Shown piece by piece: positions 7,730-54,280 of a stretch of 54,280 bases of DNA. The notes below the pieces were generated by a model. The model was not told the DNA's origin, did no database searches, and was given only the letters and a program-made list of their open reading frames with translations. Both the position numbers and the translations under genes were made by a program. Numbering within the stretch: position 1 is the first letter of the stretch; the number at the start of each line of letters is the position of its first letter. This DNA comes from Acidobacteriota bacterium (GTDB lineage: Bacteria; Acidobacteriota; Vicinamibacteria; Vicinamibacterales; CAVVIG01): the NCBI GenBank assembly GCA_028876655.1, contig JAGWRA010000118.1, positions 1 through 54,280 of the forward strand, in the 5' to 3' direction.

Positions 7730-8644
7730 TCAGGCCTTCGCGTTCAGCTCGTCGTAGGCCACGCCGAGCACGGCGCCGAGCGTGAGGGTCTTCGACGGCG
7801 CCTCGAAATCCTCGAATCCCGGCAGCACGTCCAGCTTCGTGATCTCGTCCTTCGACTGCCCGCGTTCCATCCCGCGGCGGACGTAGTCGAGCACGGCCGT
7901 GAAGTAGTCGCGGAAGTGCAGCACGTCCGCCTGCGTCCCGGTGACGCTCGCGCCGGGCTTCGCGTGGCCGAAGATGTAGATCGTGTCGGCAGGATACCGG
8001 GCCGTGACCTGGCCGAGGGTCGTCACCCAGTTGACGATCGACGCGCCGTAGGGCCGATCGACGAACGGGTGCCAGCGGTTCCACACCAGGTCGCCCATGT
8101 GCACGACGCCGGCGTTCTGGAACGTCACGACGATGTCGGCGCCGGTGTGGCCCGGCCCGTAGTAGTGGGCCAGCACCGTCTCGCTCGTCAGCACCATCTT
8201 CCAGTCGGTGTCGAACAGCGTGTCCGGGTACACCTGCGTGGCGGTCGTGCTCGTCTGCACGGCGTAGCGCCGCTGCAGCGCGGGTTCGCCGCGCTGCGCC
8301 ACGATCTGCGTGACGGCGGGCCGGAAGATCGGGTTGCCGGCCGTGTGATCGACGTGGTGGTGGGTGTTCAGCAGGAAGTCGATCGGGTGGGCCGCGCGGC
8401 TCCGCAGGCCCGCGAGACAGGCCTTCGCGGTGTCGGGATACTGGCTGTCGACCACCACGGTGTTGTCGCGCGTGATCACCCAGCCGATCGTGCCGCCACG
8501 GCCGGTGAAGATGCCGGCTCCACCCCGCAGATCCTGGAACTTCGTCGCCGGCGCCTCCTGCGCCCGCAAACGGAGATCCCCGGCACACGCGGCGCCGATC
8601 GCCAGCGACGAGACGGCGAGAAATCCGCGGCGGCTGATCTCCAT
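7730..8644 (-). CDS. Tat-exported MBL-fold metallo-hydrolase (cyclase-like)
   Basis: SRRGFL Tat motif; THHHVDHT, GHT, HMGD and FGH metal ligands; GGGAGG RBS. Confidence 0.88.
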   Translation of the reverse strand: MEISRRGFLAVSSLAIGAACAGDLRLRAQEAPATKFQDLRGGAGIFTGRGGTIGWVITRDNTVVVDSQYPDTAKACLAGLRSRAAHPIDFLLNTHHHVDHTAGNPIFRPAVTQIVAQRGEPALQRRYAVQTSTTATQVYPDTLFDTDWKMVLTSETVLAHYYGPGHTGADIVVTFQNAGVVHMGDLVWNRWHPFVDRPYGASIVNWVTTLGQVTARYPADTIYIFGHAKPGASVTGTQADVLHFRDYFTAVLDYVRRGMERGQSKDEITKLDVLPGFEDFEAPSKTLTLGAVLGVAYDELNAKA

Positions 8645-52197: not shown

Positions 52198-52824
52198 TCA
52201 GTACTCGTGTTCGCGGACCCACTTGGTGCTGATCCACTTCTCGCCGGCCACCACCGGCATCCCGGCGTGCAGCGTCCGGCGATCGATCTCGCCCGCCGGC
52301 GTGCAGTCGTAGAAGAGCACCGCCGCCCGCTTCCGCGGTGAGACCGTCAGGCCGATTTCGGGAAAGTGCGTCTCGCCGCCCGCCTCGACGTCATTGAGGT
52401 ACATGATCATCGTCAGGACCCGCTGCCCGCCGTGCTCGGCCACCACACGGCTTCCCGGCAGATCCGGATCGAAGAAGTCGAAGTGCGCCTGGTATTCCTG
52501 CCCCGGCAGGTAGCGGATCACCTGGAGCCCTTCGCCGTGGGTGACCGGCGTTCTGGTCAGCTGGGCGATCCGCTCTTCGATCGTCTTCACCACGGGCGTT
52601 TCGCCCCGGGTGAAGAACATCGTGTCGCTGCTGCGCGTCTCCACCTCGACCAGCTTGCCGGTGGCGGCATCGACCGTGACCGACCGCGTGACCTTCGCCC
52701 GGGCGTTCTCGACGAGATGCTCGCACTCGGCATCGTCGAGGAAGTCGGGAATGTAGGCCACGTACGGCGACAGGCTCAGGACGTCGATGTAAATGGTGCG
52801 AGGGGTGGACTGCGCTTCGGCCAT
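52198..52824 (-). CDS. Prolyl 4-hydroxylase (2OG-Fe(II) oxygenase), no signal peptide
   Basis: VLSLSP...FLDDAECEHL, RSS, GEGLQVIRY, HFD (HxD), GGQRVLT..MYLNDVEAGGET.FP, LHAG and GEKWISTKW: the full plant/algal/Bacillus-type P4H motif set. Confidence 0.9.
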   Translation of the reverse strand: MAEAQSTPRTIYIDVLSLSPYVAYIPDFLDDAECEHLVENARAKVTRSVTVDAATGKLVEVETRSSDTMFFTRGETPVVKTIEERIAQLTRTPVTHGEGLQVIRYLPGQEYQAHFDFFDPDLPGSRVVAEHGGQRVLTMIMYLNDVEAGGETHFPEIGLTVSPRKRAAVLFYDCTPAGEIDRRTLHAGMPVVAGEKWISTKWVREHEY

Positions 52825-52872: not shown

Positions 52873-52902
52873 TTGACGCTCCGTAGACGCGCGCCTAGTA
52901 TA
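52873..52902. promoter_or_regulatory. Sigma70-type promoter (+) with an overlapping minus-strand -10
   Basis: TTGACG-N17-TAGTAT (52873-52901) on +; TATACT (52902-52897) on -. Confidence 0.7.
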
Positions 52903-52996
52903 TCGCTGACAAAAAATTGGTAATCGATCCCCCGTCAGTGCCGCGAACCGGCTCCTTTCGCGTTCGCCGTACAGGGATGACGAAAGGATACGGTAC

Positions 52997-54280
52997 ATGG
53001 CTCCTCGTGCGCGCAGGAACGGCCTGAATATCACGGACACCACGTCCGGCCTCGTGATCCACGACCCCGGCCGCCGCGAAACGCACCACCTCGATCCCCT
53101 CGAAAGCCTGATCTGGAAGCACGCCGACGGCACCACCAGCGTGGCAGAGCTGGCCTCGCTCGCGACGGCGACCCTGGGCACGGCGATCGACGAGTCGATG
53201 GTTCAGTCGGCCATGACCGCACTCGCCGACGCGGGCCTGATCCAGGCGGACACGGCGCCGGCGGACAGCGTCCAGTCGGCCGCGCGCCGATCGATCATGC
53301 GCCGCGTCGCGACCAGCAGCGTTGCCGCGGCAGCGTTCGGGATCTTCATCGATCGCCAGGCGGAAGCCGCGCGGCCCCACGACAAGGATCGGCGGCCGGG
53401 TGGGGGCGACGAGCACCAGGACGCGGACGTCGACCGGAAACTCCACGCGCTCGAAGAGCAGATCGAAGCGGTCAGGCGGGAGTGCCGCGATGTCGAGGCG
53501 CGCGAGCGTCGCCACGACGGCGCGGAAGAAGAGCGGGCGCATCCCGGTGGCATTCCGGTCAATCTGGCGCAGGGCTGGTACGACGCGGGTCCGCCCTACC
53601 AGTTCGCCGCCTACGGGCGGCGCGCCGGCCTCGTCGTGCTCAGCGGCCTGGTGCGGCCCACCGCCGACGCGACCGCGCTCGTCGGCGTGCTGCCCAGAGG
53701 ATACCGGCCGAACGGGACGCTGCTCTTCAGTCAGAACGCACAGGCTGGCGGAACGACGCAGACGATGACGGTGAGCGTGCAGGCGGATGGCCAGATCCTG
53801 CTGCCGGAGACGACACCCGATCCGTCCGGCTGGCTGAGCCTGAGCGGCATCGTCTTCCTCGCGCGGCATGGCGCCCCGTCGCTGAACGACGGCGACAACG
53901 ATACGGATGACGGCGCCGTCCCGCCGGCGCCTGCACCATCACCGGCTCCGGCGCCCGCGCCATCACCATCGCCGGCACCGTCACCAGCGCCGGCACCTGC
54001 GCCGTCTCCGTCTCCCGCGCCTGCGCCATCGCCGGCACCTGCGCCATCGCCGTCCCCGGCGCCTGCGCCCGCACCATCACCGTCACCGGCACCCGCGCCG
54101 GCACCGTCACCGTCGCCGGCGCCCGCACCATCACCGTCGCCGGCACCCGCGCCAGCCCCGGCGCCGTCACCAGCGCCGGCGCCGTCGCCGTCCCCCGCAC
54201 CTGGGCCGACGCCGGCACCACCGCCGTCGCCAGGTCCAGCTCCGGCCCCCGCGCCCGGACCGGCACCAGCTCCGGCCCCC
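52997..54280 (+). CDS. PqqD/RRE-like domain protein with internal Tat-like signal, beta domain and (Ala/Ser-Pro)n tract (3' end truncated by window)
   Basis: 428 open codons from ATG 52997 after AAAGGA, translated by hand. Begins MAPRARRNGLNITDTTSGLVIHDPGRRETHHLDPLESLIWKHADGTTSVAELA...ALADAGLI, then ARRSIMRRVATSSVAAAAFGIFIDRQAEA; ends in APAPSPSP repeats. Confidence 0.88.
   Translation, partial: MAPRARRNGLNITDTTSGLVIHDPGRRETHHLDPLESLIWKHADGTTSVAELASLATATLGTAIDESMVQSAMTALADAGLIQADTAPADSVQSAARRSIMRRVATSSVAAAAFGIFIDRQAEAARPHDKDRRPGGGDEHQDADVDRKLHALEEQIEAVRRECRDVEARERRHDGAEEERAHPGGIPVNLAQGWYDAGPPYQFAAYGRRAGLVVLSGLVRPTADATALVGVLPRGYRPNGTLLFSQNAQAGGTTQTMTVSVQADGQILLPETTPDPSGWLSLSGIVFLARHGAPSLNDGDNDTDDGAVPPAPAPSPAPAPAPSPSPAPSPAPAPAPSPSPAPAPSPAPAPSPSPAPAPAPSPSPAPAPAPSPSPAPAPSPSPAPAPAPAPSPAPAPSPSPAPGPTPAPPPSPGPAPAPAPGPAPAPAP
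53921..54280 (+). repeat. Coding X-Pro dipeptide repeat (X = A, S, occasionally G, T, P)
   Basis: 120 codons with Pro at every second position (62 Pro by my count), 6-nt periodicity and varied wobble bases. Confidence 0.95.

Follow-up and report, generated by a model that had tools for sequence, protein, structure and literature searches.

An RRE-fold domain ahead of an internal twin-arginine-type segment and a large predicted cargo, encoded beside a prolyl 4-hydroxylase gene in an Acidobacteriota bacterium

RREs are known as the elements that let RiPP enzymes locate their separate precursor peptides, and Tat signals as N-terminal tags on folded proteins. What, then, would a protein do that carries an RRE-like domain and, behind it, a twin-arginine motif of its own? 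This question is raised by an ORF at the very end of contig JAGWRA010000118.1 (herein C65) of an Acidobacteriota bacterium (herein G000), whose 54,280 nucleotides constitute the window analysed here; the coordinates of all features are gathered in Table 1. Re-translation from the ATG at 52997 on the + strand gave the same frame and protein sequence as the original prediction, which had let the gene end at 53368. There is no stop codon at that position, and the frame remains open to 54280, the end of both the window and C65; a minimum of 428 aa is thus encoded, which excludes a protein of 124 aa with only a short tail. Initiation at 52997 is supported by a Shine-Dalgarno-like GAAAGGA ~8 nt 5' of the ATG and by the near-invariance of M1, P3, A5, and R6 in an alignment of relatives. 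Within the 172-bp divergent intergenic region that separates the ORF from a prolyl 4-hydroxylase (P4H) gene, one sigma-70-like promoter match was found (shuffle mean 0.1). As regards the missing 3' end, a survey of all ends of the 281 contigs recovered (Ala/Ser-Pro)n-type repeats, such as those in the ORF, only at the ends of C65 and of a second contig, C84, where the frame stops after …PPPGGF, similar to the stop after …GGF in a paralog encoded on contig C58. The 3' part of the gene, cut at the end of C65, thus probably continues on C84 to …PPPGGF, and the complete protein would probably measure ~490 aa.

Table 1 Features of the ORF and its upstream region within the 54,280-nt window.
Feature	Coordinates	Strand	Basis or remark
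Prolyl 4-hydroxylase, 208 aa, without signal-like N-terminus	52201..52824	-	Divergent to the ORF
Sigma-70-like promoter match TTGACG-17-TAGTAT	52873..52901	+	Consensus match alone
ORF, at least 428 aa	52997..54280	+	ATG start; frame still open at 54280
PqqD/RRE-fold domain, residues 1-85, three strands then three helices	52997..53251	+	Profile and predicted fold
Linker, residues 86-96	53252..53284	+	Low pLDDT; varies among relatives
Internal twin-arginine-type signal-like segment, residues 97-125	53285..53371	+	Sequence pattern, family conservation
Charged region with predicted long helix 142-174	53372..53539	+	AF2 pLDDT 80-92
Beta-sandwich head, residues 182-294	53540..53878	+	AF2 pLDDT 92-96
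Acidic motif LNDGDNDTDDG, residues 296-306	53882..53914	+	Kept in paralog and G002 ortholog
(Ala/Ser-Pro)n low-complexity tail, incomplete at the end of C65	53921..54280	+	Composition, repeats

The PqqD-like region lies where the original prediction had put it. In the AF2 model, three strands (residues 11–15, 18–23, and 28–32) are followed by three helices (34–42, 49–60, and 66–78) at a pLDDT of 94–98, and structure comparison with VIA superimposed residues 1–85 on the lasso B1 protein 6jx3_B (Z 10.4, rmsd 2.6, 83 of 85 residues), on TbiB1 (Z 10.0) and on PqqD (5sxy, Z 7.7). As modelled, the N-terminal domain adopts the RRE/PqqD winged-helix fold. The Pfam search that had been suggested for this region gave a mixed outcome: residues 19–82 matched PqqD PF05402 end to end (profile positions 2–67 of 67; E 0.0012, 19.6 bits for the 124-aa piece), and the gathering cut-off of 23.4 bits was not reached by the ORF in any scoring (16.5 bits on the 428-aa frame and 20.5 bits in the genome-wide scan). 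The paralog scored 26.4 bits with the same profile, and 35 of the 43 aligned relatives matched it at E ≤ 0.01 (best 2.2e-12). A phmmer search of residues 1–310 against PDB sequences returned chance-level matches only (E ≥ 0.55), and a word-based protein search retrieved the paralog as its sole match.

A profile of ten core members of the family found the ORF at 52997–53344 (E 6.9e-25, positions 1–114), and a profile of the family ORFs from 80 loci matched it at E 5.8e-26; since the ORF had been excluded from the former, the pattern in its N-terminal module is more than chance, and by profile comparison the module is homologous to a wider PqqD-RR-tail family. An exhaustive HMM search gave 4997 matches at E ≤ 1e-3, a set that takes in proteins with the N-terminal module as well as repeat proteins bearing the head domain described below. 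The RR-hydrophobic segment is present in all 44 N-module proteins that were fetched, and behind it stand Cys-rich, K/Q/E-rich or other tails. Family members are mostly 125–300 aa long and Cys-rich tails are frequent. The PqqD-SRR proteins with short Cys-rich tails that the original prediction had mentioned for Acidobacteria do exist, in Acidobacteriota and in other phyla alike. The tail is the variable part of the family, and tandem gene arrays with differing tails are frequent. In the public record the members are named “hypothetical protein”, “PqqD family protein” or, by NCBI, “PqqD family peptide modification chaperone”. We found no published account of the PqqD/RRE plus twin-arginine design in a search of openly accessible papers, and the literature found there on HPr kinase, PqqD, and nucleotidyltransferase consisted of lasso-peptide papers only.

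The breadth of the family also bears on a rival explanation, namely that the ORF is an annotation artefact: two genes, or a start at M101 that would give an ordinary N-terminal signal (MRRVA…), with the fusion arising from read-through or an assembly error. M101 does stand directly before the second RR and is kept in the paralog, and long open frames occur by chance in high-GC DNA. We nevertheless regard this explanation as very improbable, as a single stop-free frame joins the parts in the ORF, in its paralog and in all other N-module relatives obtained, across many phyla; the N-terminal domain is conserved as protein and modelled at the high pLDDT given above, and the position of M101 is occupied by L, I, M or V in the family, with no conserved start.

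The signal-like segment follows a folded domain and begins only at residue 97; it is hence not N-terminal. It reads as the original prediction had described it: RRSIMRR (97–103), a hydrophobic h-region (104–118, VATSSVAAAAFGIFI), and a c-region DRQAEAA (119–125) with an AxA site. The Tat consensus is S/T-R-R-x-F-L-K, which the ORF (A-R-R-S-I-M-R) matches in the RR, two hydrophobic residues, and one basic residue, and from which it deviates in the Ala before the RR. Conservation of the RR in homologues had been proposed as a test, and all 43 aligned relatives share both R97 and R98. In a motif survey of 87 family ORFs (80 loci, many phyla), the RR was located at least 35 residues past the W..DG motif in 86 ORFs; it was preceded by S/T in 70 of these 86 and followed by mostly hydrophobic residues at +3 and +4 and by R/K at +5 and +6, which gives the family motif [S/T]RRx-h-h-[R/K], in agreement with the Tat consensus. 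A c-region with a basic residue and AxA is common to the ORF, the paralog, and an ortholog in a second genome (G002). The curated Tat-signal HMMs PF10518 and TIGR01409 missed the site of the ORF at E ≤ 10 in a genome scan that recovered 2 and 12 other sites above the respective cut-offs, and the RR site of the paralog, at 11.8 bits, stayed below the cut-off of 16.7. PF10518 also matched 2 of 30 trimmed family signal segments at E ≤ 1, both below threshold, and gave no match to the ORF’s own segment. The genome itself encodes TatC (220 bits) and four TatA/B/E genes according to a profile search.

Is the segment cleaved, as the AxA site would suggest, or does it stay in the membrane? In the latter case the ORF protein would be held N-in/C-out by an uncleaved signal anchor inserted via Tat (in a FecR-like manner) or Sec/YidC, the PqqD fold would stay attached as a partner-binding or signalling domain, and the head would be outside, displayed or sensing glycans. 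Such an arrangement is suggested by the FecR-type “class V” Tat substrates, which, according to PMC13673990, share the layout and have a non-cleaved internal signal; it is also consistent with the positive-inside charge distribution, the AF2-predicted helix at 93–107, and the silence of PF10518 and TIGR01409. We consider it rather unlikely, however, because the h-region, bounded by R103 and D119, comprises just 15 uncharged residues (mean Kyte-Doolittle 1.95) and the best 19-residue window reaches a hydropathy of only 1.41, which judged by sequence is low for a membrane anchor, and because the conserved AxA-type site lies right behind it. Moreover, the tails of many relatives, just 35–80 residues long and beginning directly past the AxA, look like released peptides and not like sensors, the list of the 25 neighbour clusters found most widely at the 80 loci contains no sigma-factor gene, and the ORF protein has no Pfam match to FecR. 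Whether the RRE masks its own signal, as had been proposed, was addressed by modelling: residues 89–97 and 105–138 of the ORF fall below pLDDT 50 and, in the signal region of a core family member, only the linker and first helix reach a pLDDT of 72–94, therefore neither AF2 model confidently places the signal against the RRE, and the masking idea finds no sign in its favour there.

What lies behind the segment sets the ORF apart. Helix 142–174 is likely a coiled-coil neck in the model, and neck and head together (model residues 132–291) resemble gp15 of Listeria phage PSA (6r5w; VIA Z 13.5 over 141 residues), which was also the Foldseek match of the head (E 2.3e-5). The head compares with the Pa223 tail needle at Z 10.9 (VIA) and, taken alone, with bIL170 (2fsd, Z 9.9), TP901-1 (4ios, Z 9.7), and p2 (1zru, Z 8.9), each over ~95–99 residues. 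In its predicted structure, the head has the fold of phage receptor-binding-protein heads. The corresponding Pfam profile PF08931 has no match in the ORF protein, and relatives of the head score 20–26 bits with it, beneath the cut-off of 26.7; the family HMM search further revealed the head domain repeated 3 to 26 times within large proteins. A prophage origin of the head was considered and rejected because the surrounding genes are housekeeping genes, and no phage genes were found near the ORF. The acidic motif resembles the Ca-binding-like DxDxDG pattern and may have such a function. Within the window, the tail amounts to 120 residues (62 P, 35 A, 19 S, 3 G, and 1 T), and a tandem array occupies 53922–54231 inside it. 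When 400 other genomes from the phylum were sampled, no further long-cargo copies were detected and all other matches ended by profile position 129; a metagenome scan yielded only three loci. The family is large, with no published description that we found, and the combination of an RRE-type domain, an internal signal, and a large cargo beside a P4H makes the ORF an unusual big-cargo member.

The divergent neighbour was identified as a prolyl 4-hydroxylase domain protein by PF13640 (E 1.1e-15, 58.8 bits), and its closest PDB matches are the Chlamydomonas P4H (2jig/3gze, E 3.5e-46) and the B. anthracis P4H (E 4e-37). Residues H114, D116, H186, and K196 are invariant across 28 homologues, in line with its assignment by sequence to the 2OG-Fe(II) oxygenases with the His-x-Asp…His plus Lys signature. 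Only two P4H-like loci exist in the 4.19-Mb genome (tblastn), one 172 bp from the ORF and the other, on C58, ~1 kb away from the paralog, which is 50% identical to the ORF. The link to a P4H in the original prediction is thereby supported at the level of neighbourhood, both genomic P4H-like genes adjoining the two long-cargo paralogs, although the two pairs may go back to one ancestral pair and not be independent. Across the five long-cargo loci, a 2OG-oxygenase neighbour is present at four (the window, C58, G002, and L147) and absent at L148. The copy in the window is the only one with an (Ala/Ser-Pro)n tail, and it adjoins a canonical P4H. Chlamydomonas P4H-1, the best solved relative of this P4H, was crystallised with (Ser-Pro)5 (PMC9676403). 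The paralog on C58 has an adjacent 2OG oxygenase yet no proline-rich tail, so the target of the oxygenase could be a part shared by both proteins, or the association could mean something else.

The other neighbours of the ORF are YbaK-like, aldo-keto reductase, RecQ, LOG, and nitronate monooxygenase genes. No RiPP core enzymes (radical SAM, YcaO, lasso cyclase, lanthipeptide synthetase) were found near the ORF, and neither an HprK-like kinase nor a PF14907 NTP_transf_5 gene occurs on the whole 54-kb contig or in the surroundings of the paralog. Among the 87 family ORFs (80 loci), of which many bear Cys-rich tails, an HprK-like kinase is nearby for 61 and NTP_transf_5 for 47, K/Q/E-rich tails accompany a RimK-like ATP-grasp and a 2OG oxygenase, and the Pro-rich tail accompanies the P4H; by these sequence associations, cargo type and neighbouring enzymes appear to vary together. 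The only HprK-like and NTP_transf_5 genes of G000 are on contig C43, and an action of these in trans on the ORF protein was discarded, since their cluster is lasso-like and has its own free-standing PqqD gene, which leaves no ground for a connection with the ORF. The surroundings of the ORF also weigh on the idea that the PqqD domain binds the leader of some other, unrecognised precursor peptide and presents it to an enzyme, while the membrane segment is a tether and the C-terminal domains have an unrelated function. Its appeal is that the solved relatives of the N-terminal domain are all leader-binding RREs and that NCBI calls members peptide modification chaperones; against this, RiPP core enzymes, HprK-like, and NTP_transf_5 genes are all missing beside the ORF, and the family’s own tails are its variable part, often in tandem arrays, as precursors behave. 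We hold this reading to be improbable.

The reading that we prefer, tentatively and at a little less than an even chance, is that the N-terminal module serves as a leader for modification in the cytoplasm followed by export, and that the P4H hydroxylates the tail. The cargo, comprising the coiled-coil neck, a head that is probably sugar-binding, the acidic motif, and the (Ala/Ser-Pro)n tail, would be made and folded in the cytoplasm, where the adjacent P4H would hydroxylate the tail prolines. The RR signal would then carry the C-terminal part over the membrane by the Tat route with the PqqD domain remaining inside, and signal peptidase would probably cut after AEA (A124); the lectin-like product of this cut would be secreted or stand at the cell surface. 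This scheme is built on the domain architecture, the folds, the conserved RR and AxA, the Tat genes of G000, and the P4H next door, from which we infer, at the level of sequence, Tat dependence, cleavage, hydroxylation of the tail, and any part that the RRE may play in retaining the enzyme or the signal. A bolder version, which we advance as a speculation with little probability, is that the module is a general bacterial device to tailor and then export, in which the cis RRE docks the adjacent enzyme and silences the Tat signal until the cargo is modified, whereupon the leader is cut. The docked enzymes would be a kinase plus a nucleotidyltransferase, an ATP-grasp plus an oxygenase or, here, a P4H; if this were true, the window would encode a trimeric surface lectin rich in hydroxyproline and possibly glycosylated, the bacterial equivalent of the plant and algal HRGPs.

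An RRE placed before an internal Tat-type signal on a putative exported protein, in a family with thousands of members, suggests an unstudied coupling between tailoring and export. To this the ORF adds that the module can also lead a large folded cargo, beyond mini-proteins, and that the neighbouring enzyme changes with the type of cargo, here a P4H beside an Ala/Ser-Pro tail. To our knowledge, few physiological substrates of bacterial P4Hs are known, and therefore the P4H and the tail of the ORF offer a directly testable candidate substrate.

Compared with known systems, the N-terminal domain shares its fold over residues 1–85 with lasso B1 and PqqD proteins (6jx3, 5v1u/5v1v, 5sxy, and 3g2b, with Z of 10.4, 10.0, 7.7, and 7.0). 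The RREs known so far either stand alone or form part of an enzyme, and the leader that they recognise belongs to another molecule, the precursor, whereas in the ORF the RRE-fold domain is on the putative exported protein itself, before an export-type signal. PadeK and PsmK are the names of enzymes in lasso tailoring. Lasso tailoring by an HPr-kinase homologue and a nucleotidyltransferase involves an enzyme pair similar to the neighbours at family loci. At the 80 loci, family members mostly stand between HprK-like and PF14907 nucleotidyltransferase genes, a setting reminiscent of the HPr-rel-A system (HprK-related kinase A, TIGR04352, and PqqD-family chaperone, TIGR04353): the HprK-like genes of family loci match TIGR04352 at E ~1e-15 and the PqqD part weakly matches TIGR04353, all scores being far under the NCBIfam cut-offs. 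The family differs from HPr-rel-A in that its PqqD protein bears the signal and tail, and the copy in the window is without HprK-like or NTP_transf_5 neighbours. In the NHLP and Nif11 RiPP precursors, a whole conserved domain is the leader before hypervariable tails, often in tandem arrays, and a peptidase-transporter cleaves this leader off at a double-glycine site. The family resembles these in its conserved domain before variable tails, and is unlike them in having a signal-peptidase-type site after a twin-arginine segment; the ORF differs further from RiPP precursors in its cargo of more than 300 residues with folded domains and in that, among modifying enzymes, only a P4H adjoins it.

On the side of the cargo, the helical neck and beta-sandwich head are arranged as in siphophage receptor-binding proteins (PSA gp15, TP901-1, p2, and bIL170), from which the ORF differs by a sequence identity of 10–19% and a long low-complexity tail behind the head. 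The match of the neighbouring P4H to Chlamydomonas P4H-1, together with the Ala-Pro/Ser-Pro tail, recalls the algal and plant-type P4Hs that act on hydroxyproline-rich glycoproteins, although the P4H beside the ORF is bacterial and predicted to be cytoplasmic, with no glycosyltransferase beside it. With regard to export, an internal twin-arginine signal of class V FecR exports a C-terminal folded domain and the N-terminal part stays cis (PMC13673990), and internal Tat signals are described both for class V FecR and for the class IV dual Sec-Tat actinobacterial Rieske proteins (PMC5449189, PMC3471235). The class V and IV signals are described as non-cleaved anchors, whereas the ORF has an AxA site behind its signal; its predicted layout, with a folded cis N-terminal domain, an internal RR segment, and a folded, putatively trans C-terminal domain, is compatible with class V.

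Translation of the plus-strand frame from the ATG at 52997 returned residues 1–124 as in the original prediction, which had described a PqqD-like domain fused ahead of an internal twin-arginine (RR) segment in a gene ending at 53368. Both elements stood, while the gene end fell: no stop occurs at 53368 and the frame is open right through to the window's final base, 54280. The window is the entire contig C65 of the 281-contig assembly G000, and the frame runs to the contig end, therefore the protein has at least 428 residues. When 450 bases at either end of each of the 281 contigs were scanned for Pro-Ala/Pro-Ser repeats, only two ends scored, that of C65 (+) and that of C84 (−). Because the C84 end carries the repeat and its frame terminates in …PPPGGF*, sharing …GGF with the terminus of the second long-cargo copy of G000 (the paralog, on contig C58), C84 probably holds the missing 3′ part, and we regard a C65–C84 join as probable on this sequence evidence. 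An antisense open frame that overlaps the gene, without homology support, is probably a high-GC artefact.

Features of the window protein and associated loci (residues refer to the window protein; nucleotide positions are window coordinates unless a contig is named)
Feature	Position	Strand	Remarks
Pfam PqqD match	residues 19–82	+	full-profile match
RRSIMRR	residues 97–103	+	after linker, behind PqqD-like domain
Uncharged stretch	residues 104–118	+	15 residues
DRQAEAA	residues 119–125	+	c-region, AxA site
Long helix	residues 142–174	+	confident in AlphaFold2 model
Beta-sandwich (head)	residues 182–294	+	pLDDT 92–96 in AlphaFold2 model
LNDGDNDTDDG	residues 296–306	+	between head and tail
Predicted P4H homologue	52201–52824	−	divergent from window gene
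Antisense open frame	52895–53869	−	324 aa
Candidate Tat signal site	8579–8641	−	in 330-aa open frame
Second P4H-like gene	C58:12375–12947		about 1 kb downstream of paralog, behind RimK-like ATP-grasp gene
Lasso-peptide-like cluster (L107)	C43:18900–34300		free-standing PqqD gene (60 bits) directly followed by asparagine-synthetase-like gene

The PqqD pattern was matched by the Pfam profile over its full length (E 0.0012), although at 19.6 bits (20.5 bits in the genome-wide scan of G000) it stayed below the curated cut-off of 23.4. An AlphaFold2 model of the protein, built from a 43-row alignment, placed residues 1–80 at pLDDT 94–98 as three strands followed by three helices. Comparison of this modelled domain with solved structures confirms an RRE (RiPP recognition element) fold, the closest match being a leader-bound lasso-peptide B1 protein (Z 10.4, rmsd 2.6, 83 of 85 residues), followed by TbiB1 (Z 10.0 and 9.9) and PqqD itself (Z 7.7 and 7.0), with weaker matches to the RRE domains of heterocyclases, a sactisynthase and MccB.

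The paralog is 50–52% identical to the window protein and has the same part order, its tail being Gln/Lys/Glu-rich instead. A profile of the two paralogs retrieved 4997 matches at E ≤ 1e-3 from 1.84 billion representative proteins, which fell into two classes: proteins with repeats of the head domain, and proteins matching only the N-terminal module (PqqD-like domain plus RR segment). We took 44 of the latter, of which 41 were aligned with the window protein and the paralog. Across the resulting 43 rows R97 and R98 are invariant, so that the RR pair is conserved among homologues, as are W40 and G45, and Pfam PqqD is found at E ≤ 0.01 in 35 of the 43 proteins (best 2.2e-12). One genome per species was scanned for relatives; 105 were confirmed and 80 loci retained, spanning Acidobacteriota, Gemmatimonadota, Armatimonadota, Planctomycetota, Nostoc, Actinomycetota, Methylomirabilota and others. 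In 86 of their 87 family ORFs the RR pair lies at least 35 residues past the W..DG motif; it is preceded by Ser/Thr in 70 of 86, with mostly hydrophobic residues at +3 and +4 and mostly Arg/Lys at +5 and +6, which we take to be the Tat consensus. Many tails begin directly after an AxA-type site and are 35–80 residues long, 6, 8 or 10 of them Cys, so the PqqD relatives with short Cys-rich tails mentioned in the original prediction are real; other tails are Thr/Pro/Ser-rich, and several loci carry tandem copies differing in tail. A profile of ten core members of the family, built without the window protein, matches 52997–53344 (E 6.9e-25). The window gene is a new large-cargo variant of a widespread family, which we found described in no paper of the literature searched.

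Many family genes have the same partners. Of the 87 ORFs, 61 have an HprK-like kinase gene (E about 1e-15 against TIGR04352, far under the model cut-off) no more than 4 kb away, and 47 a same-strand NTP_transf_5 (PF14907) nucleotidyltransferase gene no more than 6 kb away; both accompany 43 ORFs and neither 22, some loci being on short contigs. The cassette also occurs in the G000 relatives G003, G016, G027 and G006, where several family genes stand in tandem. The 53 kb upstream of the window gene contain no HprK-like or NTP_transf_5 genes; its neighbours are the divergent 2-oxoglutarate (2OG) oxygenase, a YbaK-like editing protein, an aldo-keto reductase, RecQ, a LOG protein and a nitronate monooxygenase. 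The only such genes of G000 are on C43, in an apparent lasso-peptide cluster that also holds a PRMT-like methyltransferase gene; there the NTP_transf_5 gene lies about 10 kb beyond the gene for the HprK-like P-loop protein. At one locus (L110, G006:C28:45600-55200) a single HprK-like gene precedes several tandem family genes, at least four ORFs matching the family profile with widely different tails, some glycine-rich. At 14 loci, including L078, L082, L089-L093, L097 and L102, a GT4 glycosyltransferase gene (EpsE-like, E 4e-77) precedes the family gene, mostly by 1.4–17 kb; tails are Cys-free in those members of this set that come from Acidobacteriaceae.

Taken together, the modelled helix and beta-sandwich of the cargo are similar to the neck and head of a phage receptor-binding protein (RBP), that of Listeria phage PSA (Z 13.5 over 141 residues; Foldseek E 2.3e-5). 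The head alone matches the heads of the lactococcal phages bIL170, TP901-1 and p2 (Z 8.9–9.9) and, at Z 10.9, the tail needle of a Pseudomonas phage. An exhaustive profile search found the same head domain repeated in other proteins, with 3, 6, 9 and as many as 26 copies and protein lengths reaching 4821 residues; some of these proteins match PF08931, the family of lactophage RBP heads, below threshold. Proteins P0004-P0007 and P0010 carry the domain 15–26 times in 2574–4821 residues, and many proteins of 250–500 residues have exactly three copies, which hints at pseudo-trimeric heads. The tail, interrupted by the contig end, comprises 120 residues (P 62, A 35, S 19, G 3, T 1).

The divergent oxygenase is, by sequence, a genuine prolyl 4-hydroxylase (P4H) homologue, which matches Chlamydomonas P4H-1 at E 3.5e-46 and the P4H of Bacillus anthracis at E 4e-37; its metal and 2OG ligands are invariant among 28 homologues, and it has no signal-like N-terminus. 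By tblastn, the entire G000 genome has two P4H-like loci, one beside each paralog; the two pairs may descend from one ancestral pair, and their gene order and orientation differ. The RimK-like and oxygenase pair also adjoins the ortholog that the C58 paralog has in G002, and a 68%-identical relative of protein P0012 on metagenome contig L147, while contig L148 has the RimK-like gene and lacks the oxygenase. The G002 ortholog lies in two frames (L012/L021, G002:C3:495044-495974), split near PqqD-domain residue 58 by either a frameshift or a sequencing error. ATP-grasp and distant P4H-like oxygenase genes follow the K/Q/E-tailed long-cargo genes in convergent orientation (G000:C58:9977-12947, covering L002 and L009; L108; L147). 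Some ATP-grasp ligases form peptide cross-links between Lys/Thr and Glu/Asp, and the K/Q/E-rich tails abound in just such residues. A 2OG oxygenase adjoins four of five long-cargo loci examined; the window copy, alone in having an (Ala/Ser-Pro)n tail, is the one beside the canonical P4H, and the best solved relative of this P4H was crystallised with (Ser-Pro)5 (PMC9676403). Together these support a functional link between P4H and window protein, and suggest the tail as a candidate substrate.

The evidence on whether the RR segment is a Tat signal is divided. Over 19-residue windows, hydropathy within residues 1–158 peaks at 1.41, as is usual for the h-region of a signal and low for a helix that spans the membrane; AlphaFold2 gives the RR segment pLDDT < 50. 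For Tat speak the RR pair invariant in aligned relatives and its fitting surroundings, the short, moderately hydrophobic h-region, the c-region with a basic residue before the AxA site, and TatC plus four TatA-family genes in G000; against it, the residue before RR in the window copy is Ala, not Ser/Thr. Also against it, searches of G000 with PF10518 and TIGR01409 left the window RR site unreported at E ≤ 10, with 2 and 12 other sites, respectively, passing cut-offs, and only 2 of 30 trimmed family signal segments reached E ≤ 1 with PF10518. We put Tat export of the window protein at about even, and a cleaved leader somewhat lower. Elsewhere on the contig, the site at 8579–8641 passes the TIGR01409 cut-off (17.0 vs 16.7 bits), a candidate for an ordinary Tat substrate.

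The original prediction is partly supported, in the RRE fold, the conserved internal RR segment and a link to the P4H; its proposals that the RRE may mask its own signal until modification is complete, or may recruit the P4H, go beyond what the gene neighbourhoods show. Enzyme neighbours vary with tail class: kinase and nucleotidyltransferase near many short-tailed members, ATP-grasp and oxygenase with K/Q/E-rich tails, P4H with the Pro-rich tail. Mainly because of this variation, we infer that the constant N-terminal module serves cytoplasmic tailoring before export. The parts and their conservation are observed; in the route that they suggest, the cargo would be made in the cytoplasm, where it may also fold and trimerise and where P4H would hydroxylate the tail. 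The RR segment would then insert as a hairpin, keeping the PqqD domain inside with the cargo across, and a cut after A124 would free a lectin-like protein. A cleaved leader fits the part order because the proline-rich stretch is C-terminal, as in wall-spanning regions of surface proteins, and not between membrane segment and head. Tat export has a published precedent in class V Tat substrates, exemplified by FecR, whose internal signal likewise lies behind a folded cis-side domain, as set out in a 2026 review (PMC13673990).
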